In this document: positions 4,291 to 64,000 of the stretch, piece by piece | Numbering within the stretch: the first letter of the stretch is position 1 | Layout of the letters: each line of letters opens with the position of its first letter | Origin: Patescibacteria group bacterium | GTDB taxonomy: Bacteria > Patescibacteriota > Microgenomatia > UBA10105 > UBA927 | DNA length: 64,000 nucleotides | Direction: 5' to 3' | Assembly (NCBI GenBank): GCA_041753515.1 | Contig: JBGSUE010000040.1 | Location: 8,290-72,289 of the forward strand | Made by a program: the position numbers and the translations under genes | The notes under the pieces: model-generated | Told to the model about the DNA's origin: nothing | Seen by the model: only the letters and a program-made list of their open reading frames with translations | Database searches by the model: none

Positions 4291-4294
4291 ATAT

Positions 4295-4834: not shown

Positions 4835-4844
4835 ATCATCTCTA

Positions 4845-33777: not shown

Positions 33778-34597
33778 ATACCTTCTGTCCTTAGGCCATA
33801 CAGTCACACTTCTTGACCGCTCGGCAAAATCGGAATTGAAAAATGTCCGATTGATCAGGGGAGACATCACCAACCCGGCAGTGGTTTCCAAATCCATGAA
33901 AGGTCAGGATAGTGTCTACCATCTGGCTGGAGTCCTTGGAACTGAAGAACTTTTATTTGATACGGCCAATGCGGTAAAAATCAACATTCTGGGAGCAATC
34001 AATATTATGGAGGTGGCTGTCAAAAACCGCACAAAACTCATCCTCATTTCAAAACCGAATCCATGGCTCAATACCTATTCCATCACCAAAGAAACATCGG
34101 AAAAATTTGCCATGATGTACAGGAAAGAATTCAATCTCAAGACCGTTATTATCAAATGGTTCAGTGTCTACGGCCCGGGTCAAAAATACGGTCATGTCCA
34201 AAAAGCAGTCCCCACATTTATTATCCGGGCACTGAAGAATAAACCACTTCCTGTGTTTGATAAAGGGCACCAAACGGCAGATTTTATCTATGTTTCAGAT
34301 GCGGCAAAAGCAACTGTGGACGTATCTGAAAATCCACAATCAGAAGGACAAACAGTGGAAATCGGAACCGGTACTGAAACACGGATCATAGATCTGGCCA
34401 AACTCATCATCAAGCTCACGGGAGGCTCATCAAAAATTTCATATGAGCCGATGCGCAAAGGTGAGGACCACAACGCCCGTGTCGTGGCAGATACGTCGCT
34501 TCTTAATAAACTTACGAAGTTCAAACCACTCATAGATCTTGAAACAGGATTACAACACACCATCGACTACTACCGGAGTCTTCTGCGCACACCCTGA
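33713..34597 (+). CDS. NAD-dependent epimerase/dehydratase
   Basis: ILITGGAGFIGRHL. YSITK is YxxxK. Confidence 0.8.
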   Translation: MKTSKKILITGGAGFIGRHLTEYLLSLGHTVTLLDRSAKSELKNVRLIRGDITNPAVVSKSMKGQDSVYHLAGVLGTEELLFDTANAVKINILGAINIMEVAVKNRTKLILISKPNPWLNTYSITKETSEKFAMMYRKEFNLKTVIIKWFSVYGPGQKYGHVQKAVPTFIIRALKNKPLPVFDKGHQTADFIYVSDAAKATVDVSENPQSEGQTVEIGTGTETRIIDLAKLIIKLTGGSSKISYEPMRKGEDHNARVVADTSLLNKLTKFKPLIDLETGLQHTIDYYRSLLRTP

Positions 34598-38993: not shown

Positions 38994-39767
38994 CTATCCT
39001 TGCCTCTTTATATTCAGATTCATTAAATACCTTATAGTGTCCGATGAGCTGGTTTTCAATAATTGATATGCCGTGTCCGAAACCGTGTTGGCAATAATAA
39101 CGCTAGGTGCGTCTTTTTCAAACGGTATACGATGATATGTTTTATTAATCTCTTCAATATTGTGTCCATCAATTGTATGCACGGAAAATCCGAATGACTG
39201 CCATTTTTTTGCAAATGGTTCCAGAGGCGTAATCTCAGACGATGCGCCAAAGCACTGCCATTTGTTGTAATCCACGATGACGGTCAGATTGTCCAATTTC
39301 ATGCGTGATGCAAAAATAGCGGCTTCCCACACACTCCCCTCCCCGCATTCCCCATCGCTGATTAAGACAAAAACGTGCGGAGGTTTTTTATTAATTTTTT
39401 TATATCCCAGTGCTATACCAGAAGCAAATGCCAAGCCATGTCCGAGACTCCCTGATGTCATTTCAATACCGGGATCTTTCATTTCAGGATGCTCGCACAA
39501 TCCACCGGTATCAGCTCCGAACGAATCAATGAGTTTTTTTCCCATGATTTTTTTGTGATACAGCACAGAGTAGAGCGCTGCTGCCGCATGGCCTTTGGAC
39601 AGGATAAACCGGTCTTTTTTCACATCCAGTCTTCCGGCATACAAAACTGCCACAAGATCGGATATCGATAATGCCGATCCGATGTGCCCTGTATGGGCAT
39701 GATAAGAAATATCAAGAGAAGTCAACGCAACCTCATGACAAAATTTCTGTATATTTTTTTTCATCAT
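38994..39767 (-). CDS. transketolase, N-terminal (TPP-binding) subunit; 3' end likely frameshifted at a T-run near 39085-39090
   Basis: SKGHAAAALY...GSLGHGL...ISDGECGEGSVWEA. After ...VIIANTV the conserved ending FGHGISIIENQLIGHYK... continues in the -1 frame. Confidence 0.75.
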   Translation of the reverse strand: MMKKNIQKFCHEVALTSLDISYHAHTGHIGSALSISDLVAVLYAGRLDVKKDRFILSKGHAAAALYSVLYHKKIMGKKLIDSFGADTGGLCEHPEMKDPGIEMTSGSLGHGLAFASGIALGYKKINKKPPHVFVLISDGECGEGSVWEAAIFASRMKLDNLTVIVDYNKWQCFGASSEITPLEPFAKKWQSFGFSVHTIDGHNIEEINKTYHRIPFEKDAPSVIIANTVSDTAYQLLKTSSSDTIRYLMNLNIKRQG

Positions 39768-39802
39768 AATTCGTAATTCCTAATTCATAATTCGTAATTC
39801 TT
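39768..39802. repeat. (AATTCRT)n heptamer array: aattcgt aattcct aattcat aattcgt aattctt
   Basis: Abuts the tktN start and overlaps the last codons (ELRIMN) and the stop of the epimerase. Confidence 0.7.
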
Positions 39803-40730
39803 GTCTGTACCATTCAATTGTTTTCTTCAGACCTTCCTCGAGTAAAATTTTTGCCTTCCACCCGAGGACTTTTTCCGATTTTTCCGTACTCGCCTTCCAG
39901 TGATACGCATCCCATGCGCGCCCGGGATATGCATTTTTTACTATTTTTGATTGTGATCCAGCTTTACAAACTACTTTTTTTGCCAATTCATAGATCGTCG
40001 TTTCCTTCCCGGTGCCCAAATTAAACACTTCCCCATCCGCCCGTGATCCGGCTGATATGGTTTTCACTATTGCGCGGACAATATCATCCGTATGGATAAA
40101 ATCCCGTGCTTCGCGTCCAGTGGCAAGTTTAATGGGATTGTTTTGCAAGGCTGATTCTATAACACTTCGCACCAATCGTCCTTCTTCCTCAAACGGCCCG
40201 TAAATATTAAAAAACCTTAGAACAGTAATGGGTTTTTTGTGCCGCGTGGCATAATACTGGCACAAATGTGTTGCCGACGCTTTTGTAACCGCATAGAGGC
40301 TGTTTGGCATAATACGGTCATTCTCCATCATTGCCGTATCGCGGTATCCGTATTCGCTGGAACTTCCCGCAACAATAAATCGTTTATATGGAATATCCAC
40401 ACTCGCATCCAGAAGTCTCTTGAGTGTATTGATATTCACTTCAATCATTTTTGCCCACTCATCCTGTGATGGATATGCCCCGAATGCCGCAAGATGAATG
40501 ATTGCGTAGGGATGTGTATTTTGAAACAATTTTTCCAGTTGTTTTTCGTCTTTGAGAATACCTGTATAAAGTGTAATTTTTGACAGAAGATGACGAATTC
40601 TCCACACGTCTCCGCCGGACCGCACCGCAACATGAACATCCCACCCTCTTTGTACAAAATACTGAGTAACACTTGCTCCCACAAAACCTGCCCCGCCGGT
40701 AATAAAGACACTTTTTTTCATGTCACTCAA
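39780..40730 (-). CDS. NAD-dependent epimerase/dehydratase
   Basis: VFITGGAGFVGASV. YAVTK is YxxxK. Confidence 0.85.
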   Translation of the reverse strand: MSDMKKSVFITGGAGFVGASVTQYFVQRGWDVHVAVRSGGDVWRIRHLLSKITLYTGILKDEKQLEKLFQNTHPYAIIHLAAFGAYPSQDEWAKMIEVNINTLKRLLDASVDIPYKRFIVAGSSSEYGYRDTAMMENDRIMPNSLYAVTKASATHLCQYYATRHKKPITVLRFFNIYGPFEEEGRLVRSVIESALQNNPIKLATGREARDFIHTDDIVRAIVKTISAGSRADGEVFNLGTGKETTIYELAKKVVCKAGSQSKIVKNAYPGRAWDAYHWKASTEKSEKVLGWKAKILLEEGLKKTIEWYRQELRIMN

Positions 40731-41823
40731 TAGACTTCACACGGGACAGTGCATGCATGATCCTGTTTCTGGCATTCGGAAGATAGGTGTTGTGCTTGAG
40801 CATATACCGCTCACGGATGAGCGCTTTGACCAGTGAGATCCGCAGATAATAGAGCCAAAAACGGAGGTCAAAATCTTCCGGCAGAGTTCTGATGCTTTTA
40901 TATCCGGAAAGAAATACATCAAACCACACTTCATGTTCAAAACACCCGGATCCGTAGTATGCGATATCATATACCGGATCGCCTGCCAGGCAATCTTCCC
41001 AATCAATAATAGCTGCAACTTTTCCGCCATTCACAAATGTATTATGATTTGCCACGTCTCCATGTAAGATTGACGGCTCAAACGGGGCAATCCGTGAAAA
41101 TTTCGAAAGCTGTGTTGCTATCTCCGTTGCCTCCTTTTGGGTGATAACCCCTACCAGACTGCAGGATTCGATGTGCGAAACCATATTGAGAATAAGGTAC
41201 GACATCCATGTTTCATGAAGTCCGTGTGGTTTTCCGTCAATGATGCTTTGGATTGAAATAGGCCCGAAACGGGACGTCTTCATTTCATGAATACTGGCGA
41301 TAAACGAACCCAATTGACCAAAAAGTGAAACGGGGATATCCGTATGGAGACTTCGGTCAAACAGCGTTTCTCCGGGCAGATCTTCAACAATCTGATAGTC
41401 AAACGGCACTAACGACCGTGTTGTATCAATGTCAATGATGGTCACATGAGGAAGGGATTTTTTTTCAAGCTCCAGCATCATCCAATGCTCGGTATAAAAC
41501 GATAATTCCCGGTAAAAATCTCCGGCAGCATTAATCCGTATAACGCGGCTGCCTTTATCGGTTTTTACCCTATAAACATAATGGAGAGTTCTGCGTGCAA
41601 GTTCGTCAATTTTTTCAATGTTTTCATTATGGCGGTCGGAAAAAATTTTCCGGATATCCGGTGTGTGGACATCAAGATGGGTATTTAAGATATCCACGGG
41701 ATATACCCCGTCAACTTTCGTAAAAAAGAATGTTTTCTGATACGCGGTAAACCGGTCAACTTCGTTTTTATCGATTGCGGACGCAGATATGTCCATATCA
41801 TATGTTATCGTACCCCAAAACAC
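40723..41823 (-). CDS. APH/choline-kinase-family phosphotransferase (candidate sugar kinase)
   Basis: ILHGDVANHNTFV...IIDWEDCLAGDPVYDIA is the APH Brenner motif plus the DxE metal loop. Confidence 0.7.
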   Translation of the reverse strand: MFWGTITYDMDISASAIDKNEVDRFTAYQKTFFFTKVDGVYPVDILNTHLDVHTPDIRKIFSDRHNENIEKIDELARRTLHYVYRVKTDKGSRVIRINAAGDFYRELSFYTEHWMMLELEKKSLPHVTIIDIDTTRSLVPFDYQIVEDLPGETLFDRSLHTDIPVSLFGQLGSFIASIHEMKTSRFGPISIQSIIDGKPHGLHETWMSYLILNMVSHIESCSLVGVITQKEATEIATQLSKFSRIAPFEPSILHGDVANHNTFVNGGKVAAIIDWEDCLAGDPVYDIAYYGSGCFEHEVWFDVFLSGYKSIRTLPEDFDLRFWLYYLRISLVKALIRERYMLKHNTYLPNARNRIMHALSRVKSIE

Positions 41824-42745
41824 GGTTAATTACCATGGACAGTGATTTTATTCGATTGTATTCACTTCTTGTCAGTTCTTTCACCGTTTGTATGTTTGCT
41901 TTTTCTGTCGGAATTTCAATTGTGCCCCACGGATACTGATGCTCCAGTCTTTTTCCGTTCCATGACGGATATGTCATGGTAGGGCTGTACGGAATACCCA
42001 ATTTTTTACACAGTTTTTTGAAAAATGCCTCTTTATCCTCCACCATATCCTCATACCGCACCACGAGCATATTCCTGGAATATGTATCGGCAAAAGAAAG
42101 TGCTGCCAGCTGAACCATACTCCATGTGCGTACATATCTGTCCAGTGAATACGGCACGGGGCGACGCTTAGTTTCTGCATACGCCGCATACGGATTGCGC
42201 ACAATATGCAGCATAATTGCATCGGGAAAATCGGAAACCATTTTATCCGTATCAACAGCTATGATCGGACTGTATCCGACAAATATCTTTTCTTTACCGG
42301 TTTTTTTGTATGTACTCCACGCTGCAAACGTTGAGCGGTAGTATGCTTCCACAAGATTTTTTCGGGTTCGGTCTTTCCCTTGCATCCAGGCGACAAATGC
42401 CTTTTTCCGGTCGGTATTCGTGCACCCCAGTTCAGACACATCCCGGAATTTAGAAACATGGCGCGTATTGACCATCACTTTAAATTCTTCGTCTATGATT
42501 GCATCATAATCACTGTCCACGGTGCCTTCTATCCCGAATTCCGGCCAGCGGTATTTTTGCGGAAAACAGCTCGTCATCCAATCGGCAATTTTAAATGTTC
42601 CGGGTTGGGATTCGTACGGATACACAAAAAGTTCCGGATGGGTGTCCAAATGCCGCTGAAGTGTGTTTCCACCGTTTTCGTACATGGCAGAAATCATGAC
42701 AAAACTGAATTTTTTCGGACCGAAATCGTACGTCTTTGTGCTCAT
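41798..42745 (-). CDS. sulfotransferase-family protein (candidate glycan sulfotransferase)
   Basis: N-terminal KFSFVMISAMYENGGNTLQRHLDTHPELF is PSB-loop-like. HIVRNPYAAYAETKRR resembles the RNP 3'-phosphate-binding motif. Confidence 0.45.
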   Translation of the reverse strand: MSTKTYDFGPKKFSFVMISAMYENGGNTLQRHLDTHPELFVYPYESQPGTFKIADWMTSCFPQKYRWPEFGIEGTVDSDYDAIIDEEFKVMVNTRHVSKFRDVSELGCTNTDRKKAFVAWMQGKDRTRKNLVEAYYRSTFAAWSTYKKTGKEKIFVGYSPIIAVDTDKMVSDFPDAIMLHIVRNPYAAYAETKRRPVPYSLDRYVRTWSMVQLAALSFADTYSRNMLVVRYEDMVEDKEAFFKKLCKKLGIPYSPTMTYPSWNGKRLEHQYPWGTIEIPTEKANIQTVKELTRSEYNRIKSLSMVINRVLGYDNI

Positions 42746-42785
42746 TGCCCATACTCCTTTCAATTTTTATATTTCGATAATAGTA

Positions 42786-44274: not shown

Positions 44275-45636
44275 ATGACAATTGAAAAAGAACACGGATC
44301 TGTGGAATTTATGAATCTGCCTCACACAGTTGAATCCTGGATTATGCATCCGCCTGCTGGCGGATCACTGGGAATTGAAACATTTACAATAGAAACCCCA
44401 ATTCGACCGGTTGAAATCACCATAAAACAGGCAGTCAAAGCCGAGCAGGTTGGAAATCCTCTCAAAGCCGGGTGCGGCGACGTTGCAGCAGTATTTCACA
44501 CATCTTACCCGCTTGCTTATCCCTCGACACCAGATAATTGTGCCCATATTACCGGTATCGTATGCAGGGATTTTCTGTCCCACGCGCCATCTGATTTACC
44601 ATTCTGGGAGAAAATGAAATCCGATCCTAAAATTTTGGATCATGCCGAAAGTAATGGTGTACCTATACTGAAAACTGACAGCATCGACTCCTGGACCGCT
44701 GGAAAATTGAGAACACCCAATGATTACGGTCAACTATTGATGAGTTCTCTACCATTTGACCATATGATCAATGTGGCACGCAATCCCAGATATTTCCCTT
44801 ATCTACATAAACTTGTTGAATTGGAATCGATACGTTATCAGGGCGGTGATATATCTCTGCGCACCTGCATCGACATGACTAAGAGAGTGGAACGTGTTGA
44901 TGATATTGTGCTTGACCCAATTGATAAAGTTATAACGCATGCAGTAAATACTCTTAAACATGTACCGTCTGTTGGATTTGGCGGTGACATCCAAACTCTA
45001 GCCTTTATCATCCAGATGCCTGGCAACCAGGGCGCTATACTCGCACTTCTGCGAAGCAACGCAGACGAGGTGACACGGATTAAACCGGCATCAGATCTAC
45101 CTTGGCTTCTTTTTGCTGACAATACAAATTTTCTCATGGAAGATCAGCGTATAAATTCCGAACATCGTCCCGAACATACGGATTTCAACTACAAGGCAGC
45201 AGGGTATTGGATGACAGGAGCCGGTGGCTGGAGACGGCGACGAATGATTCCTTCCGTAGCCAATAAAGGATTGCCTCGCTATACATTGTCCATTTTTTCG
45301 ATCCCTGCTGATTCAGACATGCAAATCGAAACGGTTACCGACGGTATGATATTTTCCCCCTTTGAATTAAACCGTTCTTATGGACAACTTGAAGATCAAA
45401 AAAGTCTTTTTCATATTCTTCATCGATACCTTCAATCAGGCAATCGCGAGTCATATCAGCGACAAATTACATTACTGCAAAGAATAAAACCTGAGGGTTG
45501 GATTATCAGGAATCCTGATGTTATGAATCTCTCGACATTAGTCAAAGCTGAAGAATATATTAGTTTTCTGCAGATAAAAAAGGATCTGGAACAGCCGTTT
45601 GATGATGCGACATTTATCGGCGCAAAAGTAGTATAA
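44275..45636 (+). CDS. hypothetical protein (453 aa); weak resemblance to a 2OG-Fe(II) oxygenase core
   Basis: No confident domain. HTD at EHRPEHTDFN and RYTLSIFSIPADSDMQIE resemble an HxD motif and the R-x-S 2OG-binding motif. Confidence 0.5.
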   Translation: MTIEKEHGSVEFMNLPHTVESWIMHPPAGGSLGIETFTIETPIRPVEITIKQAVKAEQVGNPLKAGCGDVAAVFHTSYPLAYPSTPDNCAHITGIVCRDFLSHAPSDLPFWEKMKSDPKILDHAESNGVPILKTDSIDSWTAGKLRTPNDYGQLLMSSLPFDHMINVARNPRYFPYLHKLVELESIRYQGGDISLRTCIDMTKRVERVDDIVLDPIDKVITHAVNTLKHVPSVGFGGDIQTLAFIIQMPGNQGAILALLRSNADEVTRIKPASDLPWLLFADNTNFLMEDQRINSEHRPEHTDFNYKAAGYWMTGAGGWRRRRMIPSVANKGLPRYTLSIFSIPADSDMQIETVTDGMIFSPFELNRSYGQLEDQKSLFHILHRYLQSGNRESYQRQITLLQRIKPEGWIIRNPDVMNLSTLVKAEEYISFLQIKKDLEQPFDDATFIGAKVV

Positions 45637-47638
45637 GGCAGCAAACAGTAACCAAGGATATTGCTAAACCCGTCAAAAACGATTCAGGTACAAATGTAAA
45701 TTCTACCACATGTTCACCCCCGGGAACTTCTACTGCACGGAAGGCAAGATTGTTTGTGATGACTGGTACCCGTTTGCCGTCGATGTACGCCCGCCAACCC
45801 GGATACATGACTTCACTTGTGGCAAGATAGGCGTTGCATGGAGAGTTGAGCGTTAAGCGTACAGAGTTAAGCGTTATGCGATCTTGGATAATTTTCGAAG
45901 TACTAACGTCTTCACAATCATTTGAAGTTTTATCCGTAACAAGAAGTGTTGTCTGCGGATCATACTTCCGTGACCGGATTGCGGCGGCGACTTCTTGCCT
46001 GTCTGAAAAAGTTTTCGCCTCCCCCGCAATATAAAACCGCGGTAGGACAGCCGAATTCTCATACAGACGTAGTCCGTAAGTGTCACTTGTATAAAGGAGT
46101 TTATACTGACTATTGCCTATTAACGTATCATACGCAAACGGAACAAGAACATACTGGACGTTAAGAAAATTTACATATGGAGATGTCATGTCCACATATG
46201 GAATTTGGACGTTGTGCGATAAAATACTCGACGTTTCACTTCCGTTTGACGCATCAATAAAATCATAATAATTTGAAAGCATCGACGGATCGTACCCAGT
46301 TGCCGACTCAACTCCATACACTATGCCAGCATCAAAATCGAATGCATTACGCTCTTGAATCCAGTTTGCATAATTCGGGAGTATCCGTCCGTTTTTTAAA
46401 GATCGTATTGTTGAATCATATGTCAACTCCGGCAAAGGTTTGATTTCAATCAGATGTTTTGCAGGGATATACAGTTCTATAAACAAAATACAGACAAACA
46501 GACCACGCAGCCAACTTTTCCGCACAAGCGAAAATCCTGTTCCTGCAAGACACGATACCGCAAAAACGGACAATACCATGTGACGCGCCGGAAAACGGAT
46601 ATGCCTATATAACGGCATCAGTTCGTATAGTATTTTATTTCCGTCTACTGGGCTGTTTGGTCCAAATGAAATCCAAAGTGCAAACAATGCGATGAGTGCA
46701 AATCCGATAGTACGCTTTTTTATTAATGCATACACGGCCAAAAACAGTGCTGTAACACTGAAAAAGAAAGCTTGTTCATGATAGTTTGGCGGAGGCCCTA
46801 CAAATGTTGTTTGATCTCCTAAGATAAACGGACTAAACAATTGTTGAAGCGATGAGGGGACAAGCGATCCCACGCTCACCCACTCATACGGAAAATCGGT
46901 ACTGCGCACACTTTTTCCCATAAATTCCGCCTGCGGCAACAACTGGAATGCGGACAGCAATAGCGCAAGACACAAAGATATCGACATAACGACAAAAGAT
47001 TTCACTGATTTTTGCAGAAGCATGAGAATACCGACGGCTTCGAGTGTAAACATAGCGACAGTCTGATATCCTGCAAGAATCTGAAAAGCAAGAGATACTG
47101 CTGCCAGAAGAATATGTTTCCGTGTCGGTGTACGAAACAGTAACATGAAACTACCAATGACAAACGGTATAAGCGCGCTTGCCGCCACTGTATCTGCGTG
47201 TCCGGCCCAAGTGCGGGCCAGAAAATACTGGGACAATCCGAACGCCAGTGATGCACCGATTGCACTTACCGTATCAAGCCGGAGGACTTTTTTTGAAAAC
47301 CAGTACATTGCCCAGAGGGCGATAAATATATGTATCGCAAACGTCCAACCGTATGCCGCATTGAACGGCATGAAAAAAAATTTCCAGTTGACCGGATAAA
47401 AAGCGGCAACAGACGGATTTGCGGCATACGGCATGCCGGAAAATACATACGGATTCCACCACGGGAATTGTCCGGATAGAATGCTGCCCACAAAATACCT
47501 GCGGAAAAAACCGTAGGAGCGCCACATGTCATCGGCAAACAGTGCATACCCGTCGGGGGGGAATAAAACCTGACCAAATAAAAACAGAACAACCGAGACA
47601 AACAGAAGAAAAATAATTATAGATTCTTTTATCCACAT
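45614..47638 (-). CDS. YfhO-family GT-C membrane glycosyltransferase
   Basis: GQFPWWNPYVFSGMPYAANP. C-terminal periplasmic domain MYPGWRAYIDGKRVPVITNNLAFRAVEVPGGEHVVEF is typical of YfhO. Confidence 0.75.
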   Translation of the reverse strand: MWIKESIIIFLLFVSVVLFLFGQVLFPPDGYALFADDMWRSYGFFRRYFVGSILSGQFPWWNPYVFSGMPYAANPSVAAFYPVNWKFFFMPFNAAYGWTFAIHIFIALWAMYWFSKKVLRLDTVSAIGASLAFGLSQYFLARTWAGHADTVAASALIPFVIGSFMLLFRTPTRKHILLAAVSLAFQILAGYQTVAMFTLEAVGILMLLQKSVKSFVVMSISLCLALLLSAFQLLPQAEFMGKSVRSTDFPYEWVSVGSLVPSSLQQLFSPFILGDQTTFVGPPPNYHEQAFFFSVTALFLAVYALIKKRTIGFALIALFALWISFGPNSPVDGNKILYELMPLYRHIRFPARHMVLSVFAVSCLAGTGFSLVRKSWLRGLFVCILFIELYIPAKHLIEIKPLPELTYDSTIRSLKNGRILPNYANWIQERNAFDFDAGIVYGVESATGYDPSMLSNYYDFIDASNGSETSSILSHNVQIPYVDMTSPYVNFLNVQYVLVPFAYDTLIGNSQYKLLYTSDTYGLRLYENSAVLPRFYIAGEAKTFSDRQEVAAAIRSRKYDPQTTLLVTDKTSNDCEDVSTSKIIQDRITLNSVRLTLNSPCNAYLATSEVMYPGWRAYIDGKRVPVITNNLAFRAVEVPGGEHVVEFTFVPESFLTGLAISLVTVCCLILLLRR

Positions 47639-49978: not shown

Positions 49979-51724
49979 TCATCGATACTCATAAATGAAT
50001 ACGTTTCCGTTTTCGTAAAGTTTCGTCAGAAACGGATAAAATTCATCCAAATTTTTCCCTCCGGCATCTTCGCGCTCCTGCGGCCCGAAAAATATGTAGT
50101 GCAGTCCGGTTTCTGACAAAAACTGCCGGGCATCGTCAGGCGGCATCGTCCCGCTGAAAAATGCTTTCACATACATCTTTTTCTCCTGGCTTCCCACCGT
50201 GTTGTCATGCCCCACATACACGGTATTACCGGAGTAGACGGGGATATAATTGCCGGCAGTTGTCTGAGACAAAATGGCGGTATCCCTGCTTGTGTTGTCC
50301 TGAAGCCAGACAATGGCATCGATAAAATCGTTTAAGGGATACATCACGTAACTGCCTGTGGGTACCAACGGATACGCGGCAACTATTTTATGAACCACGA
50401 AGTCCCTTTGCCAGAGCCATGACGAATACATGTGCATGAGATTAAGCACCAATAAACCTAATGGAATCACGTAGATCAGATCAGGAAATGTATATAAGAG
50501 TTTTGATTTCTTTTTATCAAAACCTTTATTTTTAATATATTTTTCAATGGAATACCTGAGAGAAAGATACAGTTGATAAAAAAGATAGACACTCAATATT
50601 CCTAATGGAATGTGGACAATCATTTCGGAAAACCGCAACGGACTCTGTTGGGGAATAAACTGAAAGATAAACAGGAGCGCTGCCCATGCTAATACCCAAG
50701 CAACGGGCAATATCATGAGCTTGTCACGTTTTTTCAATGCAATGACTGCTCCAAGAACCCCAAGCGGCAGCATGATGCCGACTGCCTGCAGATATTCGTA
50801 ATACTGAAACGGCAGTGGCCGGAGAACATCGGCAAGTGCAAGCTCCTTCCAGGGGTAAAATGTCACCATCAACTGTAAATACGCCATCGACGGCAAGGCG
50901 ATAATCGACAAAAAAAGCCTGCCGAATACATGTCTGCCAAACCATACCCGGAAGTTTTTTTTCACCGGCCGATCAAACCAGAATTCAAGTACTGTCATGA
51001 CGGCAAATCCTGCGTACACAAATACAAGCCCCGGCGGGAAAATAAATCCGAGAACAAATGACAGTATCCCTAAAAATATCCAATTGCGCGGTTTTGCTAT
51101 GGTGGCAAGATCGGATCCGGCAAAAAGAACAAATGCCAACAGAATCTGTCCGACGAGCAGGTGCGGAATGAAAGTAATCCGCTGCAGGGAATCCATCACA
51201 CTCCACCATGCCATGTATCCTCCGATGCGCAAGGATCCGTCATCCATGGTTACGAGTTTCGGATATGTACTCGCTGTGACGGCAAACAAAAATCCAAGAA
51301 TGGAAAGTCCGTATTTTGTGAAAGATCGTTTAGCAATTTCTGCAGTGACTATCAAGAGTACAAATCCGAGAACAGTCCGGGTTGCGTGATATATATCACT
51401 TGTCCGGTGCCAATTGATATGCACCCACTTCCCGATCCATCCGAGAACCAGATAAAATACGTGTACAAAAGAGCCCTGATGCGGTTCGCTCGTATACTTT
51501 TCGTGAACTGTAAGGTGTCCTTCCAATCCCTGTCTAATACGCGAGAGATAGAAATTAAAATCCGTATAGAAATTATGCACCAGCTCGAATCGCCGCTCAG
51601 GCCGTATGGTATCCGCTTTACCAATCTCAAAAAACATCGGCCAGAGGGAAAAGATGACAAAAAACAGGGAAAGGAGTACAAATGTGTAAGGTTTTAACAA
51701 CGCGAGCAATTTATTCATAGTCAT
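49979..51724 (-). CDS. GT-C-like paralog family member 4
   Basis: RRFELVHNFYTDFNFYLSRIRQGLEGHLTVHEKYTSEP. C-terminus FYPFLTKLYENGNVFIYEYR. Confidence 0.55.
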   Translation of the reverse strand: MTMNKLLALLKPYTFVLLSLFFVIFSLWPMFFEIGKADTIRPERRFELVHNFYTDFNFYLSRIRQGLEGHLTVHEKYTSEPHQGSFVHVFYLVLGWIGKWVHINWHRTSDIYHATRTVLGFVLLIVTAEIAKRSFTKYGLSILGFLFAVTASTYPKLVTMDDGSLRIGGYMAWWSVMDSLQRITFIPHLLVGQILLAFVLFAGSDLATIAKPRNWIFLGILSFVLGFIFPPGLVFVYAGFAVMTVLEFWFDRPVKKNFRVWFGRHVFGRLFLSIIALPSMAYLQLMVTFYPWKELALADVLRPLPFQYYEYLQAVGIMLPLGVLGAVIALKKRDKLMILPVAWVLAWAALLFIFQFIPQQSPLRFSEMIVHIPLGILSVYLFYQLYLSLRYSIEKYIKNKGFDKKKSKLLYTFPDLIYVIPLGLLVLNLMHMYSSWLWQRDFVVHKIVAAYPLVPTGSYVMYPLNDFIDAIVWLQDNTSRDTAILSQTTAGNYIPVYSGNTVYVGHDNTVGSQEKKMYVKAFFSGTMPPDDARQFLSETGLHYIFFGPQEREDAGGKNLDEFYPFLTKLYENGNVFIYEYR

Positions 51725-54278: not shown

Positions 54279-55522
54279 AAAAGAGAACCATTGAAATTAC
54301 TTCAATACTTTTTTTTGCAATTCTTGCTTATTTTTTCAAATACTGGCTTATTGAATTGGCTCCCCAGCCGGTGGTATTTGACCAGACTGAATACCTGAGT
54401 TTTGCCAAATTGATGATTGAGAAAGGTCTGTATACACCGACCTCACGCACATACGGCTACCCCCTGTTTCTTATTCCCCACATACTGCTGTCGCAGGATC
54501 CTGTCCGGTCCACAATCAACACACAGGTAGTTCTCGATGTAGCAAGCGGCATTCTTCTGTATATTCTTGCGTATAAACTATTCAGGTCAAAAATTGCTGC
54601 ATGGGTCGCAATGCTCATCCAGTTCTTCAACCCGTTTACCAGCGCATATGCCGGCGTCATACTTACGGAAACAGTTGCTGTTTTTTTGAATGTGGTAATA
54701 CTTTTTCTTTTCTATGCGGCATCCGTAACAAAACGGACAATGAAAAATATATCGCTCGTATTACTTGGTATAGTAATCGGGTATGCTTTTGAAACCAGAC
54801 CGGCGATCTATCTGTGGGGCATAGCATCTCTCGCAATCATTGCCTACCTTATTCCTAAAAAAAGGGTTGCCGCGGCAATTCTTGTCGGTTGCGGCATACT
54901 CCTCTCAAGCCTTTATCAGATTTCTGCAAATCTCACGCTCCACGGACAATTTTCTTTTATAACGGTAGACAGTTTCTTTGCACGGGAACTGTACGACGGG
55001 ATTCTGGTAAAAAACGCACCTCTTTTTCCAAATACCCCGGAGGCATACCCTCCTGAAATGCGTACCATGTATCAGGAATACTCTGTGCTGCCAAAAAATG
55101 CAATTGAACGCAAGGCTATGGCCGATAAATATTTCAACAAGGCCGTAAATCTCATCAAAGCTGATCCGGGTGACTATGTCCTGGCACGGTTTAAAAAAAT
55201 GTGGAGTATGTGGCAGAAAGAAAATATATTTTTCTACTGGGAACCGGATTTCGAAAAACACAGACTATTCACTTATACGGCAAATCTCGTAGTGCTTTCT
55301 CTGTCAGCATTTGGATTGCTGAAGAATATAGTAAAAGGCGGGAGTTTCCATATTTTTACGCTCTCAATACTTCTCTTTATGACCATTGCAATTTCCGTCT
55401 CACATGCGGAACCCCGCCTTACGATTCCTGCCTACCCCATTTTATTTCTCTATGCCGGCTACTCAATCAATGCGCTCATACACAATATACGAACTGTTTC
55501 TGATCATCTCACGGAATCCTGA
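54275..55522 (+). CDS. ArnT/PMT_2-like GT-C membrane glycosyltransferase (start trimmed to MKKRTIEIT; ATGA overlap with the HAD stop)
   Basis: LAPQPVVFDQTEYLSFA...NPFTSAYAGVILTE...KMWSMWQKENIFFY. Confidence 0.65.
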   Translation: MKKRTIEITSILFFAILAYFFKYWLIELAPQPVVFDQTEYLSFAKLMIEKGLYTPTSRTYGYPLFLIPHILLSQDPVRSTINTQVVLDVASGILLYILAYKLFRSKIAAWVAMLIQFFNPFTSAYAGVILTETVAVFLNVVILFLFYAASVTKRTMKNISLVLLGIVIGYAFETRPAIYLWGIASLAIIAYLIPKKRVAAAILVGCGILLSSLYQISANLTLHGQFSFITVDSFFARELYDGILVKNAPLFPNTPEAYPPEMRTMYQEYSVLPKNAIERKAMADKYFNKAVNLIKADPGDYVLARFKKMWSMWQKENIFFYWEPDFEKHRLFTYTANLVVLSLSAFGLLKNIVKGGSFHIFTLSILLFMTIAISVSHAEPRLTIPAYPILFLYAGYSINALIHNIRTVSDHLTES

Positions 55523-57025
55523 TACAGATATCTGCTCGGGCGATACAATGTATCGAATACTATATATTCGAATAATAGAATCTTTAACAAAATCGTCTGT
55601 TCCGTATATGAGTTCATTGAGTGCACTCGTTTTTTCTTCCGGCATATAGGTAAACGTGGGATGGCCTGCGAGCGTCCTGTGGGGAGTAAATGCGGGAAGA
55701 AGCGTTGAGAGTGTCTCAGGGGCGGCAACGACTCCGGGATTTTGTACAGAAAGAAATTCAATAACTGTCATCATATCATCGGGAACCATAACGAGAGGAT
55801 TAGTCATATTCTTTTCAACATACATATCCTGACGGCTCAGGCTAATGGCAAATGTCGGCATACCCAAAGCCACACTTGCCAATACAACGATATACATCCA
55901 TGTCCTCCTCATGGAAAACGGTTTCACGAAAACGGTTATCGCCAGTGTTGCCAGGAGCGCTGAAGGGATATACCCGGCTGACTGCAGATATCTGCCGTTT
56001 GAAACCGGAATAAATTGTGTGAAAAGCCCCAGTCCCAAAAATGGGAACAGAAACCATCCGAGAATGGTGTTCCACCGAAAATCGCGGCGATAGAGAAGAA
56101 ACGGGATTGATACGATAGCTATGACCCCCACTATTCCAAGCGTTTCCAGATACCCCATCATATTGATGGGGTACTGTACAAACCTCTCCCAATCACGGAA
56201 AGCGGTCCACGGAAAAGTGCTCCCCTGGATTTTCATCATGAAAAACACCTGGGCAATAAGGATAAGATAAAAAATCTCGATCTCGCCGAATTTGAATTTA
56301 TAGAGCCGGAGAAATCTGTAAAACGTCAATACGATCCCTGTGGCGATGGCCACACTCAAGGCCATCAGGCTTGCCGGATTGAGCCACACACTGACAAGAG
56401 CGCAACATGTTGCCCCGATAGTCAACCGGAATGACTGCAGTGTTTCTTTCCTTCTCTCAACCATACGCATGAAAAGTATCATGGCGGCGATCATAAAGGC
56501 ATTGGAAAATGTGTGATGCGGAAGCCATGAAACACGTAAGATCGGATCAAAACCGGTCCAGAATTCACCAGCCTGATACAGCGCTCCGCCTTTTGACCAC
56601 CAGAACGGAGCACCAAAACACATAAATAACAGCGCAATAATTCTCTGATGCAGAGTAAACCGCAGTTCAACAGCCAGTACATAGCCCGTAAACAGAAGCA
56701 TTGATCCTCCAACAATCCGTAGTACCGTATACATGGCAGGAATGCTTAAATGAAATATTTTTGCGGCCATGCCGGCCAGAGGAAAAAATGTGTTGATAAG
56801 CTGTGGCGTAAAAGTTTCCGGCGTATAGTTTGAAGTGAGAAGAAGCGATCCGTCATACCCCTGCCGCATTAGAGACAGATACCAGTAGTAGTCCTGTTCA
56901 TAATTGTGAACGAAAGGATACTCAAAGCCTTCAGGCATTTTTACTTGATACAGAAATGTCTGATACAAACTGACAACAACAAAAAATACTATTGCTGCGG
57001 CAACAATAAGATATCCCTTTTTCAT
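55463..57025 (-). CDS. GT-C-like paralog family member 6 (start trimmed to MKKGYLIVAAAIVFF)
   Basis: PEGFEYPFVHNYEQDYYWYLSLMRQGYDGSLLLTSNYTPETF. C-terminus MIRNSSYIVYERID. Confidence 0.55.
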   Translation of the reverse strand: MKKGYLIVAAAIVFFVVVSLYQTFLYQVKMPEGFEYPFVHNYEQDYYWYLSLMRQGYDGSLLLTSNYTPETFTPQLINTFFPLAGMAAKIFHLSIPAMYTVLRIVGGSMLLFTGYVLAVELRFTLHQRIIALLFMCFGAPFWWSKGGALYQAGEFWTGFDPILRVSWLPHHTFSNAFMIAAMILFMRMVERRKETLQSFRLTIGATCCALVSVWLNPASLMALSVAIATGIVLTFYRFLRLYKFKFGEIEIFYLILIAQVFFMMKIQGSTFPWTAFRDWERFVQYPINMMGYLETLGIVGVIAIVSIPFLLYRRDFRWNTILGWFLFPFLGLGLFTQFIPVSNGRYLQSAGYIPSALLATLAITVFVKPFSMRRTWMYIVVLASVALGMPTFAISLSRQDMYVEKNMTNPLVMVPDDMMTVIEFLSVQNPGVVAAPETLSTLLPAFTPHRTLAGHPTFTYMPEEKTSALNELIYGTDDFVKDSIIRIYSIRYIVSPEQISVSGFREMIRNSSYIVYERID

Positions 57026-57055
57026 CCCCCATAGTGTACTATTGTCCTGTATCAT

Positions 57056-58714
57056 ATGTCCAAAACAACGAAGTATATTCTGATCGGTGCAGTCGCCATA
57101 CTTGTGTTTCTCCGGCTTCATATGGGCATCACCCGTTTTTTTGACTCCGATGAAATGAGCCATATGCACTGGGCGTGGCTTGTATCCCGTGGCGATGTGC
57201 CCTTCCGCGATTTTTTCTATTACAATCTTCCCGGTTACCAATATGTGATCCTCTGGCCGTTTTTCCTGCCTGCCTCATCCGGTATTCTCATCATCACCCG
57301 CCTCTGGCAGTTTTTAATGTACCTGGCAACCGTCGTCCTTCTGTATCGTTTTACTAAACGCCTGACAAACAGTTCCGTCATCGGTCTTCTGTCCTCCGTT
57401 ATCTTTCTTGCCTTCCCCATGACATTCGATAAAACAATCGACATCCGTCCTGACATGACGATGATGCTGTTTTATCTTGCGGCGCTTGAACTTACTCTCA
57501 CCACAAAAATTTGGTCACAGTCACGGGCTTTTTTTCTTGGATTTCTCATTGCGCTCTCAATCGGTGTGACGCTCAAAACCATCGTGTTTGCCCTGCCGGC
57601 ACTCCTCTTTGTTTTTTTTACCAACAAACCAAAACCGAGCCCGATACAGACCATCACGGCATTGTCCGGGATCATTCTTCCGGCTCTTGTGTATTTTTTG
57701 TATCTTACTGTCACTGATGCGCTCATTCCCGCAATCACCATGATCACAAAAGACGCCTTTGCGGTAAATGCCGGCAAAGGCACATTCTCTCCCTGGAAAG
57801 CCTTGTCCCCCTATCCCCTTGTCTATCTGGCGGAGGGCGGCGTATCCCTCCCATGGATCATAAACACCGGAATCTGGATTCTGTCAGTTGTGGGGTTTAT
57901 CAAACTGATCCTGACGAAAAAATCCAAAAGTGCGTTTCTTGTCATATATTTTTTCTTCGGTATCATATTTCTTTTTCTCTTTCCGGCTCCGTACTTGCAG
58001 TATTTTCTCCCGCTGTCCGTCTTTGTTTCCGTCCTTGCCGCGATAGCTATCCAAAAATATCAGTCTGCCCCTTTAGCATTCGTCGTCTGTGCACTTCTTG
58101 TAAGTTCATTTTTTATCCAATATAAAGAGCGGACAGGAATAAAAAACTCCAATGCAGAACAACTCAGCGTCATCTCCTCAACGCTTGAAATGAGTCGCCC
58201 CAATGAAACATTTTATGATATGGTGGGCTCCTACATATTCCGTCCGGACGGGTTTATCCTCTGCTGCCATCCATACAATGAATTTGCCGACCGATTGTCC
58301 ACACAAGTACCGGCCCTGCGCGATTCGCTAATTGAGCGCGAAACGAAATTCATCGTCATGGACCGGACTGCTATTGTTTTCTGGTATCCCTATCCCCAAG
58401 ACCTGACATTTCTTAAATCGCATTATTTCGTATCGGAAAAAAACTGGAAAATATACCTGCATGGCTACAGATTCGGATGTATGGATGGAAAATGCACACA
58501 GTACGATATTGAAGATACCCCCGTATCACCCGCTTCATCATTTTATATTATCGGCGCCGATACTTACAGAGTGACCGTCACACCCCAAAACCAGACTGTG
58601 GCAATCGACGGCGTTTCGTACGGCAACAGTGCAACGGTCCCGTTGTCAAAAGGTAATCACACCTTCACCGCCGACCCCGCCGTCACCTCCTGGACCATTC
58701 AACTAAACAGGTAA
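57056..58714 (+). CDS. GT-C-fold membrane glycosyltransferase, ArnT/PMT-like
   Basis: RFFDSDEMSHMHWAWLVSRGDVPF is the GT-C acidic motif. Paralog of 11177-12592. The beta-rich C-terminal domain is probably periplasmic. Confidence 0.65.
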   Translation: MSKTTKYILIGAVAILVFLRLHMGITRFFDSDEMSHMHWAWLVSRGDVPFRDFFYYNLPGYQYVILWPFFLPASSGILIITRLWQFLMYLATVVLLYRFTKRLTNSSVIGLLSSVIFLAFPMTFDKTIDIRPDMTMMLFYLAALELTLTTKIWSQSRAFFLGFLIALSIGVTLKTIVFALPALLFVFFTNKPKPSPIQTITALSGIILPALVYFLYLTVTDALIPAITMITKDAFAVNAGKGTFSPWKALSPYPLVYLAEGGVSLPWIINTGIWILSVVGFIKLILTKKSKSAFLVIYFFFGIIFLFLFPAPYLQYFLPLSVFVSVLAAIAIQKYQSAPLAFVVCALLVSSFFIQYKERTGIKNSNAEQLSVISSTLEMSRPNETFYDMVGSYIFRPDGFILCCHPYNEFADRLSTQVPALRDSLIERETKFIVMDRTAIVFWYPYPQDLTFLKSHYFVSEKNWKIYLHGYRFGCMDGKCTQYDIEDTPVSPASSFYIIGADTYRVTVTPQNQTVAIDGVSYGNSATVPLSKGNHTFTADPAVTSWTIQLNR

Positions 58715-59514: not shown

Positions 59515-61014
59515 ATGCAGGCGTTATTGTGGATCGTCATTGTTTTACTGACATCACTCTATGCATTAGGCAAATACCTCGTCGGTGTATCCCATACCCC
59601 TCCGGGATCTGTGTTTTTGGGTACAGTCCACTACCCCACGGATTATTTTATTTATCTGTCCGAGTATGCCTGGGGGCGGCACAGCTGGTTTTTCAATAGG
59701 GTTTTGCAGTCAACCGAGGCGCCTGGTGACAATCTCATCCGGTGGGTCAACGTATTCTGTGGTCATATATTCTCTCTCTTCGGCCTCAATCAGATCACAG
59801 CTTACCAAATCTCCGTTGTTCTTTTTACGGTAAGTATCATATATCTCTCATATACACTTCTTGTTAAAATATTGAAATCACGTCATGAGGCATTATACGG
59901 ATTATTCGTCTATCTGACAGCCAACGCATTCCCGGGCTGGGACGGATCAAATCTTTCCACATTCGATTTCTGGTACAACCAGGGAAATCCCCTCAACCGT
60001 CTCATCAACGTCCCCCATCATCTGTTGGGGCAAATTGCGCTCCTTGCTCTCGTTTACATCTGGATATCAAAAAAGAAAAATCTTCTTTCATTTGTGGTTG
60101 CCATCATCTGCGGCATGATTCTGGCAGGCGTGAACGGTGTGCATCTCCTGTTCGCAGCCGGCATCATGAGTGTGTCCCGTTTATCACTCCCTGTACTTTT
60201 TTCACTCATCGGCGCAGCCCCGATACTTTTATCTGTCAGGCACACATTAAGCATTCCCCCTCTCTCCAATATGATCATTTGGGAAACAAACAACCAAATG
60301 ATTCTGACCCCATGGCGGCTGTTTCTGGGATACGGCCCGATATTATTGTCCTTATTGCCTGCAACAATCATGTACTTGAAAAAACCTGACAGATTCAGAA
60401 TTTTTTCCCTTCTGTTCACATGGATCAGTCTTCTATTGTTTCTTTCCCCTATTCCAAAACTTCTTCATTTGGGAAACGTCCGGTTTCTCATACCCTTCAC
60501 TCATATACTTCTCAGCATCATGGTTATTGACATACTACGCAGAATAAAAATTCAGACAATAAAAACAATTATTGTTTCTGTATATATCGGGGTATCTGCA
60601 CTATCTTTGTATGCAACAGGGACAAAAATATATGCGCTCTACCAAAACCCCGCAAATCCCTTTTATTATCTGCCGAAACCAGTCTATTCTCTCTTTGCCT
60701 ATTCTGGAAATATATCCAAACCGGATGATGTATTTCTTTTAGGATGGCCGTACAACGCGATATTCCCTGGCATCTCCGGGTCACAATCATATTTTTCCGA
60801 AGTCCTCCTGGTAAAAGATCCGGTTGAAACCGGAAAATTGGCGGAAATATTTTTTTCAGACGAGTCACCGATCCCAGAGCGGATACAGTTTCTCAATCAA
60901 TTCGGTATCACCTACATCATTCATCGGGAAGAAACACTCTCCCCATCGTCTGGTCTTCCCATCCAACAAATCAGATCAGAAGGCGGATTTACATTATGGA
61001 AAGTCGTGAAGTGA
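59515..61014 (+). CDS. GT-C-like paralog family member 7
   Basis: PPGSVFLGTVHYPTDYFIYLSEYAWGRHSWFFNRVLQSTEAPGDN. C-terminus IRSEGGFTLWKVVK. Confidence 0.55.
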   Translation: MQALLWIVIVLLTSLYALGKYLVGVSHTPPGSVFLGTVHYPTDYFIYLSEYAWGRHSWFFNRVLQSTEAPGDNLIRWVNVFCGHIFSLFGLNQITAYQISVVLFTVSIIYLSYTLLVKILKSRHEALYGLFVYLTANAFPGWDGSNLSTFDFWYNQGNPLNRLINVPHHLLGQIALLALVYIWISKKKNLLSFVVAIICGMILAGVNGVHLLFAAGIMSVSRLSLPVLFSLIGAAPILLSVRHTLSIPPLSNMIIWETNNQMILTPWRLFLGYGPILLSLLPATIMYLKKPDRFRIFSLLFTWISLLLFLSPIPKLLHLGNVRFLIPFTHILLSIMVIDILRRIKIQTIKTIIVSVYIGVSALSLYATGTKIYALYQNPANPFYYLPKPVYSLFAYSGNISKPDDVFLLGWPYNAIFPGISGSQSYFSEVLLVKDPVETGKLAEIFFSDESPIPERIQFLNQFGITYIIHREETLSPSSGLPIQQIRSEGGFTLWKVVK

Positions 61015-61759: not shown

Positions 61760-62113
61760 ATGAAAAAATTGCGGATTTTTGGATTTATTGTTATTGGCAT
61801 TTTTGTATTTCTCTTTTTATATTTGCGCACCAAAAATACAGAACCTGCACAGACCGCAACAACCCCGGACAATCCCAAAAACTGCCAGGTGAAGGAGTGT
61901 GAAAACGGTCAGTCGCAGATCTATCTTGAGGGCATCGGGTGGAGCCCGTGTGCCGACCGGTGCAGTAAACAGGATCTGGAAAACAACGGAGGCAAAAAAT
62001 CATGTGACTGCCCCCAAAACAGCGAATCAAAGACCTGCACAAATATCTGTCTTACCTTCGGAGATCCATGCAGCACTCAATACGATTACTACCAATGGAC
62101 AGGCTGCAGATAA
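61760..62113 (+). CDS. small Cys-rich secreted or membrane-anchored protein (10 Cys), hypothetical
   Basis: N-terminal TM or signal segment FGFIVIGIFVFLFLYL. CQVKECENGQ...CADRCSKQ...CDCPQNSESKTCTNICLTFGDPC. A -10-like TTATAAT lies 9 nt upstream of the ATG. Confidence 0.45.
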   Translation: MKKLRIFGFIVIGIFVFLFLYLRTKNTEPAQTATTPDNPKNCQVKECENGQSQIYLEGIGWSPCADRCSKQDLENNGGKKSCDCPQNSESKTCTNICLTFGDPCSTQYDYYQWTGCR

Positions 62114-62131: not shown

Positions 62132-64000
62132 ATGGACGATGAATCTGCCGCACCTTCTGCATTTGAAAAACTGGCCGCACAATTCCGTACACATCCTTCA
62201 CGGTTTATTCTCCCCATTCTTATCCTCGGATTTCTTCTGCGCGTCGTCTTTCTCCCAAATCCCGGTTTTGAAGCGGATATTTCATTCTGGAAATCCTGGG
62301 GACTTGCCACATATGACCATGGTGCCGTCTGGGGAATTGAAAACACCAATAACAACTACCCCACGCCGTTTACCTATGTTTTAGGCATGATGACATGGGT
62401 CTATAGTTTATTTGCCGATCCCCACAACTTTCAGGAATACTGGTCAAATACGAATCTCCTGTTTTTGACTATCAGCAAAATGCCTGCAGTGATCGCAGAT
62501 TTTATTATTTTCTGGCTTTTCATCTTTATCGGAAAACACGCGAAAAAACTCGGATTTCCTGAACTTCCTTTCTCCATATACGTTCTTGCAGGTGTTGCCT
62601 TCTTTCTGTCGCCAATTACGATCATGGATAGTGCATGGTGGGGTCAGGTTGATAGTCTCGGTGTTCTGGTATTTCTGTTTGCCTTTTATCTTGCGCTCAC
62701 AAGAAAACCATATTTGGCGGGATTCATCTATATGGCTTCAATGATGACCAAACTCCAAAACATGATCTACGGTCCCCTGTTTTTTATCCTCCTCTGGCAG
62801 ATGACCGGCTATAAGGGGCTTCTGAAAGGCATGTTCGGCGCGGCTACCGCATTCATCGGGCTCAACTGGGAATTCATGATGGCGCGCAAAATGAACCTGG
62901 TTTTTGAATCGTTAACGGTCAATTACGATTACTTTCCGTTCATGTCCCTCAATGCGTACAATCTCTGGTGGCTCGTGGCCAAGGCCGACGGCATGCATAC
63001 ACTGGATAAATTCAGTGTTGTCGGCATAATAAATGCCAAAACGGTTGGACTATTTATTTTTTCTTCTCTTTATTTGCTATCAGTGTTAATCATGATAAAA
63101 GAAACGATCCGCATGATGTGGAAAAATTCCATTACAACGCTCACGGAGCAAAACACGCAGGACATTCTGTACAATTTTTTTTCCGGCATGATCATCGTCG
63201 CATGCGCATTTTTTCTCTTCCAAACCCAGTCCCATGACCGCTATGCGTTTCCTCTTGTTGTCCTTCTGCCGTTTTGGCTGTTATTTTTCCTGAAACGAAG
63301 TCTGACAAAAACGGAGCGCACAACACTCTACTCCACAAAATTATTCAAAAACTCCGTCCTATATTTCAGTATATTTACTCTCTTCTATTTTTATAACCTC
63401 CATAATGCAATGGTCGACAATTATCCGCTGAACGGTTTCCCGTTTGTACGCGACCTGAACATTCCGGCGGCCACAATCATCACGTCTGTCGTCCAGCTTA
63501 TTCTTTTTTTCGCATTTCTCTGGGCACTAGCCCGACACATATCTCCATACTGGTATGCGGTACCTCTCGGAACGGTCATCCTCCTGCTGACTATATCAAA
63601 TCTGCCGCTCATCACCCGCACTCCAGTGTCCATCAACCGTTTCTTCCCGATTATAAACCAACAAGGGTATGGAAAAATGCAAAAAAATATGCCGGTAAAC
63701 GCTCACCAGGGATTCAATTACTGGTCGCCTCTTTCGGTCCAATATGCGTTTTACAGAAACGGATACGGAACACATGCAAAAAGCTATCAATTGTTCAATA
63801 TTGCCGGAAAATTTGCCAAATTCTCGACAGACTATGGCATCGATACGGATGCCGGTGGGGCGGCATCCGCTACATTTGAAATTTACGGCGACGATAAACC
63901 GCTATATATCTCCGAAAAAATTGGACGGTACGAATATCCTCGGCATGTGGAAGTGGACGTAACGGGTGTCAAAATGCTCGGACTTGTCACCAACGATGCA
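62132..64000 (+). CDS. GT-C-fold membrane glycosyltransferase-like protein with C-terminal NPCBM carbohydrate-binding domain (partial; runs off window end)
   Basis: ATG at 62132 with the frame open to 64000. About 13 TM segments. C-terminal HAKSYQLFNIAGKFAKFSTDYGIDTDAGGAASATFEIYGDDKPLYISEKIGRYEYPRHVEVDVTGVKMLGLVTNDA matches the NPCBM consensus. Confidence 0.6.
   Translation, partial: MDDESAAPSAFEKLAAQFRTHPSRFILPILILGFLLRVVFLPNPGFEADISFWKSWGLATYDHGAVWGIENTNNNYPTPFTYVLGMMTWVYSLFADPHNFQEYWSNTNLLFLTISKMPAVIADFIIFWLFIFIGKHAKKLGFPELPFSIYVLAGVAFFLSPITIMDSAWWGQVDSLGVLVFLFAFYLALTRKPYLAGFIYMASMMTKLQNMIYGPLFFILLWQMTGYKGLLKGMFGAATAFIGLNWEFMMARKMNLVFESLTVNYDYFPFMSLNAYNLWWLVAKADGMHTLDKFSVVGIINAKTVGLFIFSSLYLLSVLIMIKETIRMMWKNSITTLTEQNTQDILYNFFSGMIIVACAFFLFQTQSHDRYAFPLVVLLPFWLLFFLKRSLTKTERTTLYSTKLFKNSVLYFSIFTLFYFYNLHNAMVDNYPLNGFPFVRDLNIPAATIITSVVQLILFFAFLWALARHISPYWYAVPLGTVILLLTISNLPLITRTPVSINRFFPIINQQGYGKMQKNMPVNAHQGFNYWSPLSVQYAFYRNGYGTHAKSYQLFNIAGKFAKFSTDYGIDTDAGGAASATFEIYGDDKPLYISEKIGRYEYPRHVEVDVTGVKMLGLVTNDA

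Follow-up and report, generated by a model that had tools for sequence, protein, structure and literature searches.

Patescibacteria cannot be grown alone, and the chemistry of their envelope is essentially unknown. To our knowledge, work on carbohydrate-binding modules of the CBM51/NPCBM family has until now dealt with secreted hydrolases and peptidases, enzymes that break down host glycans. Three binding modes are reported for the CBM51 family (PMC9513282). Within the GT-C superfamily, EmbC (PMC3044687) and AftD (bioRxiv 10.1101/2019.12.22.885152) are arabinosyltransferases whose lectin modules bind the glycan acceptor. In ALG6, D69 is the catalytic base (PMC12653191) and H378 is essential (PMC10859629), while PimE has the same triad, with D58 at the tip of the first juxtamembrane helix (JM1) and with K195, through a salt bridge, and H322 both on the phosphate (PMC12041525). 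The stretch of DNA analysed here (the window; 64,000 nucleotides from a Patescibacteria group bacterium) ends in a gene whose product is a fusion protein belonging to both the GT-C superfamily and the NPCBM/CBM51 family (Table 1).

The reading frame of the fusion gene starts with an ATG at 62132, the preceding ORF having stopped at 62113, and stays open for 623 codons, as far as the window reaches. Support for this start comes from the closest homologs, whose alignments begin at residue 1. Since a database protein (P0001, from an 88,083-bp NCBI contig) that is 100% identical across all 623 residues has a full length of 641 aa, the gene is cut by the window with just 18 residues missing (GDGINDDHTDWLNPLLWP), in agreement with the first-pass annotation, which had noted the cut. 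That annotation had suggested that more domains may follow; judging from P0001, the 18 residues complete the NPCBM domain and nothing further comes after it. The frame thus does close shortly past the window, an outcome that the annotation had considered, but with a domain that is present and completed by those residues rather than without one. Throughout, the C-terminus of the fusion protein was taken from P0001 and the downstream gene was read from related loci. The neighbour protein P0276 was found only on a 3.4-kb Logan contig, which stops short of the fusion gene.

Table 1. Features of the fusion gene and its surroundings (positions are those of the window)
Feature	Position	Strand	Remarks
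GT-C/NPCBM fusion gene	62132..64000	+	codons 1-623 of 641 in window; last 18 codons and stop beyond
GT-C-fold transmembrane glycosyltransferase domain, aa 22-489	62195..63598	+	13 predicted TM helices, N-terminus inside
FEAD motif, aa 46-49	62267..62278	+	begins the first juxtamembrane helix on the outside; D49 proposed as catalytic base
WWGQVD motif, aa 169-174	62636..62653	+	outside loop between TM3 and TM4
TKLQN motif, aa 206-210	62747..62761	+	K207 is the proposed polyprenyl-phosphate binder
SHDRY motif, aa 367-371	63230..63244	+	between TM9 and TM10; H368 is the proposed second phosphate/donor ligand
NPCBM/NEW2 (CAZy CBM51) beta-sandwich, aa 496-623 of 496-641	63617..64000	+	outer face, short linker from TM13
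Four NAD-dependent epimerase/dehydratases	32085-33035; 33713-34597; 35335-36288; 39780-40730	-; +; -; -	in island
Split transketolase	38020-38904; 38994-39767	-	in island
APH-type kinase	40723-41823	-	in island
Sulfotransferase	41798-42763	-	in island
Soluble GT2 glycosyltransferase, 223 aa	43523..44194	-	Pfam Glycos_transf_2, E 2e-17
Orphan polytopic membrane protein, 581 aa	49979..51724	-	divergent; ~8 hydrophobic segments; no Pfam match
Upstream partner, 246 aa	58753..59493	+	N-terminal TM anchor, Pro-rich linker, outside domain
Orphan polytopic membrane protein, 499 aa	59515..61014	+	between 246-aa partner and fusion gene; ~7 hydrophobic segments
Small ORF, 142 aa	61182-61610	+	~4 hydrophobic segments; no Pfam match
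Small ORF, 117 aa, Cys-rich	61760-62113	+	N-terminal hydrophobic segment; no Pfam match

The first-pass annotation had described the product as a GT-C-like membrane protein with a C-terminal NPCBM module, and both parts were confirmed, the module by Pfam and the GT-C-like part by predicted fold and profile-level sequence homology. The HMM search that it had proposed for the module (PF08305, curated cut-off of 23.9 bits) matched the window protein at aa 510-623 with 74.7 bits (E 9.1e-21, profile positions 14-120 of 137). This match stops at profile position 120 because the window ends; with the full protein it reached 98.8 bits (E 3.5e-28) and covered positions 14-134 of 137. The C-terminal beta-sandwich superimposes on solved CBM51 structures, of which 2vmg is in complex with methyl-galactose and 7jrl with GlcNAc. 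Sugar binding in this family relies on an aromatic platform and on histidines that form hydrogen bonds, and the module may likewise bind carbohydrate: its GYG, GxGTH (H548) and DDHxDW (H631) blocks are conserved and align with 2vmg, although the second His of 'THAH' in 2vmg is a Lys in the fusion protein.

For the transmembrane part (residues 1-495), the GT-C family search gave a divided result: neither a Pfam nor an NCBIfam model matched it in this protein, but superfamily profiles did reach ALG6 and Gpi14. The structure prediction that had likewise been proposed was clear, and the AlphaFold2 model, built on an alignment of 62 sequences, has a GT-C fold with 13 membrane-spanning helices (mean pLDDT 90.5, pTM 0.89). 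A profile of the close homologs (A1) compared with the PDB matched CBM51 entries only and no GT-C structure, and ALG6 and Gpi14 came within reach only of the broader superfamily profiles A2 and A3. With the transmembrane part alone as query, an exhaustive search retrieved 1600 representatives at E up to 1e-3, and superfamily profiles of such relatives matched Gpi14 at E 8e-12 (~125 residues covered) and yeast ALG6 at E 8e-11 (~340 positions), the homology to ALG6 being visible only at this profile level. A Foldseek search with the fusion protein matched EmbA/EmbB at E 6e-6. The protein shows the features of the GT-C_A type: its fold is polytopic, the N-terminal TM module is conserved, the first outside loop contains juxtamembrane helices, and the helix of this loop begins with an acidic residue, D49, as the putative catalytic residue.

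The placement of the membrane core within the superfamily was then considered family by family. The GT87 model (PF09594; PimE-like, formerly DUF2029) did not match the window protein at E up to 1 and matched 20 of the 62 homologs weakly (best E 1.6e-6), and the GT57 model (PF03155; ALG6/ALG8) left the window protein unmatched and matched two of the 62. Since the respective HMMs do not match the fusion protein, it was filed under neither family. Many JGI homologs carry the label Gpi18/PIG-V-like mannosyltransferase; no structure or model of Gpi18/PIG-V (GPI mannosyltransferase II, GT76) was among the matches obtained, and the GPI-pathway proteins that did match were GPI mannosyltransferase I (Gpi14) and PIG-U. 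We place the membrane core in an unnamed branch of GT-C, intermediate between the ALG6/ALG3/Gpi14 group and PimE.

The residues on which catalysis depends in the characterized relatives have counterparts in the fusion protein. F46, E47, A48 and D49 are invariant among the 62 homologs, with D49 at least 90% conserved across the superfamily, and in the superfamily-profile alignment D49 falls on the aspartate of ALG6 'YGDFEAQRHW' (native D69), the position equivalent to D58 of PimE (PMC12041525). K207, also invariant, aligns with the lysine of ALG6 'CFKQ' and of Gpi14 'HFKI' and has K195 of PimE as its analogue (PMC12041525). H368, R370 and Y371 are invariant or nearly so, and the alignment of 'TQMHERY' with ALG6 'FQVHEKT' places H368 on native H378. 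In the WWGQVD motif, no variation was seen within the family at W170, G171, Q172 and D174, and little or none across the superfamily; this motif may be an active-site or acceptor contact. Across 118 relatives down to ~20% identity, D49, W56, Y76, D123, W170-G171-Q172, D174, K207, Q209, N277, W279, H368, R370 and Y371 all remain invariant or nearly so. Conservation of this degree favours catalytic activity over a role as a PIG-U-like scaffold. The lysine and histidine that contact the phosphate in ALG6 and PimE correspond to K207 and H368, and the surrounding gene island encodes a GT2 resembling GtrB and dolichol-phosphate mannose synthase (DPMS); by analogy, the donor would be a polyprenyl-phosphate-linked sugar.

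With the N-terminus inside, the modelled helices put D49, K207 and H368 all in outside loops, and the helix parity between the three residues is even, as one active site demands. The density of K+R is 0.159 in the predicted inside loops versus 0.044 in the predicted outside loops. An inside N-terminus followed by 13 TM helices puts the CBM51 outside, and the active site and the CBM51 are thus both predicted on the outer face of the membrane, where the first-pass annotation had placed the module.

A scan of one genome per species recovered 79 related loci. Those with informative titles come from Candidatus Gottesmanbacteria, Woesebacteria, Microgenomates or other Patescibacteria MAGs. About half of the 79 are titled 'uncultured Gammaproteobacteria bacterium' (binchicken MAGs; among L002-L077); they share gene order and 45-55% identity with the Gottesmanbacteria loci, and because of this shared synteny we take their titles for placeholders or erroneous taxonomy labels. 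The NPCBM domain is present in each of the 62 aligned homologs (49-72% identity) and, again at the C-terminus, in 43 of the top 149 representatives found with the transmembrane part. Distant fusions (21-30% identical) occur in Planctomycetota and Phycisphaerae, where NCBI labels them 'NPCBM/NEW2 domain-containing protein' or 'DUF2029', and there are also relatives of ~420 aa without an NPCBM domain. Since the fusion is kept in many Gottesmanbacteria and in Planctomycetota proteins of only 21-30% identity, it is, on these sequence comparisons, judged to be old and maintained, and automatic annotation already shows it. As to whether the fusion arose once or several times, Fitch parsimony on a quick NJ tree counted 15 state changes, a figure that carries no weight for either origin, as truncated metagenomic proteins were scored as domain-less.

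Two further observations concern the family. N-terminal extensions of 170-760 aa were seen in some distant relatives of the TM domain, namely P0191 (1325 aa), P0157 (1161 aa), P0155 (878 aa) and P0268 (1216 aa), which makes the family modular beyond the fusion studied here; of these, P0191 also has a C-terminal NPCBM. On the Gottesmanbacteria contig CAVQFA010000001.1, two paralogs (L001 and L012) share 64-65% identity with the query and are encoded on opposite strands, ~17 kb from each other. Both are accompanied by their own 552-aa, 246-aa and 581-aa-like neighbours, so that the whole module is duplicated there.

The fusion gene lies at the end of a glycan-biosynthesis island that spans at least 24000-64000. 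Besides the enzymes listed in Table 1, the island encodes a HAD hydrolase, two methyltransferases and no fewer than 11 polytopic membrane proteins, the majority without a family assignment. Some of these match PMT_2, PMT or YfhO weakly; the Pfam cut-off is exceeded only twice, by 36375-38018 against PMT_2 and by 45614-47638 against YfhO. The soluble GT2 has two best solved relatives: the Synechocystis glycosyltransferase sll0501 (5ekp, E 1.9e-10), which is GtrB, a polyisoprenyl-phosphate glucosyltransferase, and the dolichol-phosphate mannose synthase 5mlz (E 5.2e-8, aa 4-215); every NCBIfam match of this protein was far under its cut-off. From its sequence, it is a candidate synthase of the polyprenyl-phosphate-hexose donor.

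Several neighbours recur with the fusion gene. The 581-aa protein is the most widely conserved of them, being found in 64 of the 79 related loci (median 44% identity), and the 246-aa partner, whose outside domain has a PsbP/Mog1/LpqN-like fold, is present in 57. The 499-aa protein, which matched no Pfam or NCBIfam model, occurs in 37 of the 79, usually at the same position. The conserved order is the 581-aa protein, the 246-aa partner, a 499-aa or 552-aa membrane protein and then the fusion gene. In 71 of 73 related loci, a co-directional gene for an orphan polytopic membrane protein of ~788 aa starts ~23 nt past the stop of the fusion gene and is probably co-transcribed with it (for example L033:11821-14187 on the + strand, without a Pfam match); in the source genome this gene would lie beyond the window. 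The neighbours at 49979-51724, 57056-58714 and 59515-61014 were considered as paralogs of the membrane core, but hhalign against A3 gave no significant match (E values of 0.17, 0.02 and 0.51). The two small ORFs directly upstream of the fusion gene (142 and 117 aa) had no tblastn match in the 79 related loci at E up to 0.01 and were therefore set aside as members of the system; they are either lineage-specific or not genes.

Elsewhere in the window, the mechanical ORF 55463-57241 (-) shares 186 nt with the divergent ORF 57056-58714 (+). As the in-window paralogs of the minus-strand ORF can be aligned only from about residue 85 onwards, its real start is probably internal and the two genes are divergent neighbours. 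The regions 3775-5372 (-) and 5314-7383 (+) hold three tandem type IV pilin-like genes with an N-terminal (G/A)FTL(I/M)E motif and, beside them, the gene of a 689-aa polytopic protein whose C-terminal stretch looks TPR-like by eye; together these could form a pilin-glycosylation or pilus-related pair. The region 1500-3500 is AT-rich (28-33% GC versus ~44% elsewhere) and has no long ORF; at 2669-2969 it contains a repeated motif that includes CGTCGTAAAA. Neither a tRNA nor an Rfam match was found anywhere in the window.

Overall, these results support the first-pass annotation as essentially right in its interpretation, that of a transferase binding its polysaccharide acceptor or product on the outer face. 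We consider it fairly probable that the fusion protein is a polyprenyl-phosphate-hexose-dependent GT-C transferase of the outer face whose CBM51 holds the glycan acceptor or product, and it probably helps to build a surface glycan. In such a mechanism, a GT2 such as the one in the island would make polyprenyl-monophosphate-hexose on the inner face, and this donor would then be flipped. By analogy with its closest structural relatives, the fusion protein would take the hexose from this donor in an active site that opens on the outer face of the cytoplasmic membrane, with D49 as the catalytic base and with K207 and H368 holding the lipid phosphate. The hexose would be transferred with inversion to a growing surface glycan, either lipid-linked or wall-linked. 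The CBM51, for its part, would most likely bind this acceptor or product glycan and bring it to the active site, a role that lectin-like modules have in EmbC and AftD.

A broader form of this proposal, which we put forward only tentatively, is that the CBM51-capped ALG6-like transferase forms the core of a conserved, otherwise orphan envelope module that assembles a lineage-specific lipoglycan or wall glycan of Gottesmanbacteria. This module would include the PsbP/LpqN-like anchored protein, several of the unannotated polytopic proteins and the 788-aa downstream membrane protein. If so, the assembly on the outer face would be functionally comparable to that of mycobacterial LM/LAM, with the CBM51 acting as a device that holds the acceptor or sets the chain length, and a CBM family so far known only from enzymes that degrade glycans would thereby gain its first role in biosynthesis.

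An enzyme of the same class might instead act on a protein acceptor such as an S-layer protein or a pilin, as a PMT/PgfM-like O-glycosyltransferase whose CBM51 reads glycans on the protein. The likeness invoked here is to the MIR domain, which accompanies PMTs. We regard this as unlikely, as the closest relatives in fold and sequence (ALG3, ALG6, Gpi14 and PimE) all glycosylate lipid-linked glycans, whereas the matches to PMT and OST were much weaker and no Pfam PMT model matched the fusion protein.

It is similarly improbable, in our view, that the beta-sandwich has lost sugar binding and serves as a structural lid or auxiliary for folding, stability or gating, in the manner of luminal Pbn1. 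The very short linker after TM13 and the confidence of the whole model do suggest a fixed packing, and Gpi14, among the closest relatives, requires a separate luminal partner (PMC12653191). Moreover, the most conserved stretch of the module (W531-S551) includes a family-specific helix without a counterpart in the aligned CBM51s. Against these points, the GYG, GxGTH and DDHxDW blocks of NPCBM are kept, H548 (GxGTH) and H631 (DDHxDW) are invariant, the domain was matched far above the Pfam threshold in 62 of 62 homologs, and the accessory beta-sandwiches of EmbC and AftD do bind glycans (PMC3044687; bioRxiv 10.1101/2019.12.22.885152).

The least likely of the three rivals, a dead GT-C scaffold like PIG-U in the GPI transamidase that would make the protein a membrane-anchored lectin or receptor (e.g., for attachment to host glycans), is highly improbable, since the Asp, Lys and His of ALG6 and PimE are kept, invariant or nearly so, in a superfamily spanning several phyla and the fusion gene sits among glycan-biosynthesis genes.

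The outer-face transferase with an acceptor- or product-holding CBM51 therefore remains our preferred reading. No publication was found that describes NPCBM in combination with DUF2029, GT87 or Gottesmanbacteria, and in the literature on NPCBM/CBM51 together with glycosyltransferases or GT-C only unrelated work was found. The principle of the fusion is already known from mycobacteria; a CBM51 on an ALG6-like core, as in Patescibacteria and Planctomycetota, is uncharacterised. Here the CBM51 is joined to a biosynthetic and putatively lipid-donor-dependent transferase, in a fusion conserved across two phyla. If it binds the acceptor of its own enzyme, the principle of EmbC and AftD would reach another branch of the GT-C superfamily as well as Patescibacteria. 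In addition, the family provides a compact target, one confidently modelled chain of 641 aa, for studying how GT-C enzymes select glycan acceptors, and the ligand specificity of the CBM51 would give a first handle on the sugar displayed by these organisms.

Compared with the eukaryotic relatives, the fusion protein is bacterial and only ~13% identical to yeast ALG6 (GT57, Dol-P-Glc:Man9GlcNAc2-PP-Dol alpha-1,3-glucosyltransferase; 6SNH/6SNI), which has 14 TM helices and no substantial luminal domain (PMC12653191), in contrast to 13 TM helices and a C-terminal CBM51 here. Gpi14/PIG-M, the catalytic subunit of GPI mannosyltransferase I (GT50; 9WNO), has its luminal domain in a separate subunit, Pbn1 (PMC12653191), which is not a CBM51, whereas the fusion protein has its outer domain in the same chain. 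PimE, the mycobacterial GT87 polyprenyl-P-Man alpha-1,2-mannosyltransferase (9DM5), is a 383-residue chain without a CBM in its solved structure, and it is a poorer structural match to the fusion protein than ALG3 and ALG6. In domain plan the nearest likeness is with EmbC/EmbA/EmbB and AftD, in which a polytopic GT-C core is likewise combined with one or more periplasmic carbohydrate-binding beta-sandwich modules; however, these are much larger proteins of another GT-C subfamily with 15-16 TM helices, their CBMs are not CBM51/NPCBM, and they act on arabinan in Actinobacteria. Finally, in Clostridium perfringens GH95, GH98 and ZmpB and in Streptococcus pneumoniae Sp3GH98, the CBM51 is carried by secreted glycoside hydrolases or glycopeptidases that degrade host glycans, whereas that of the fusion protein forms part of a biosynthetic enzyme held in the membrane of an environmental ultrasmall bacterium.
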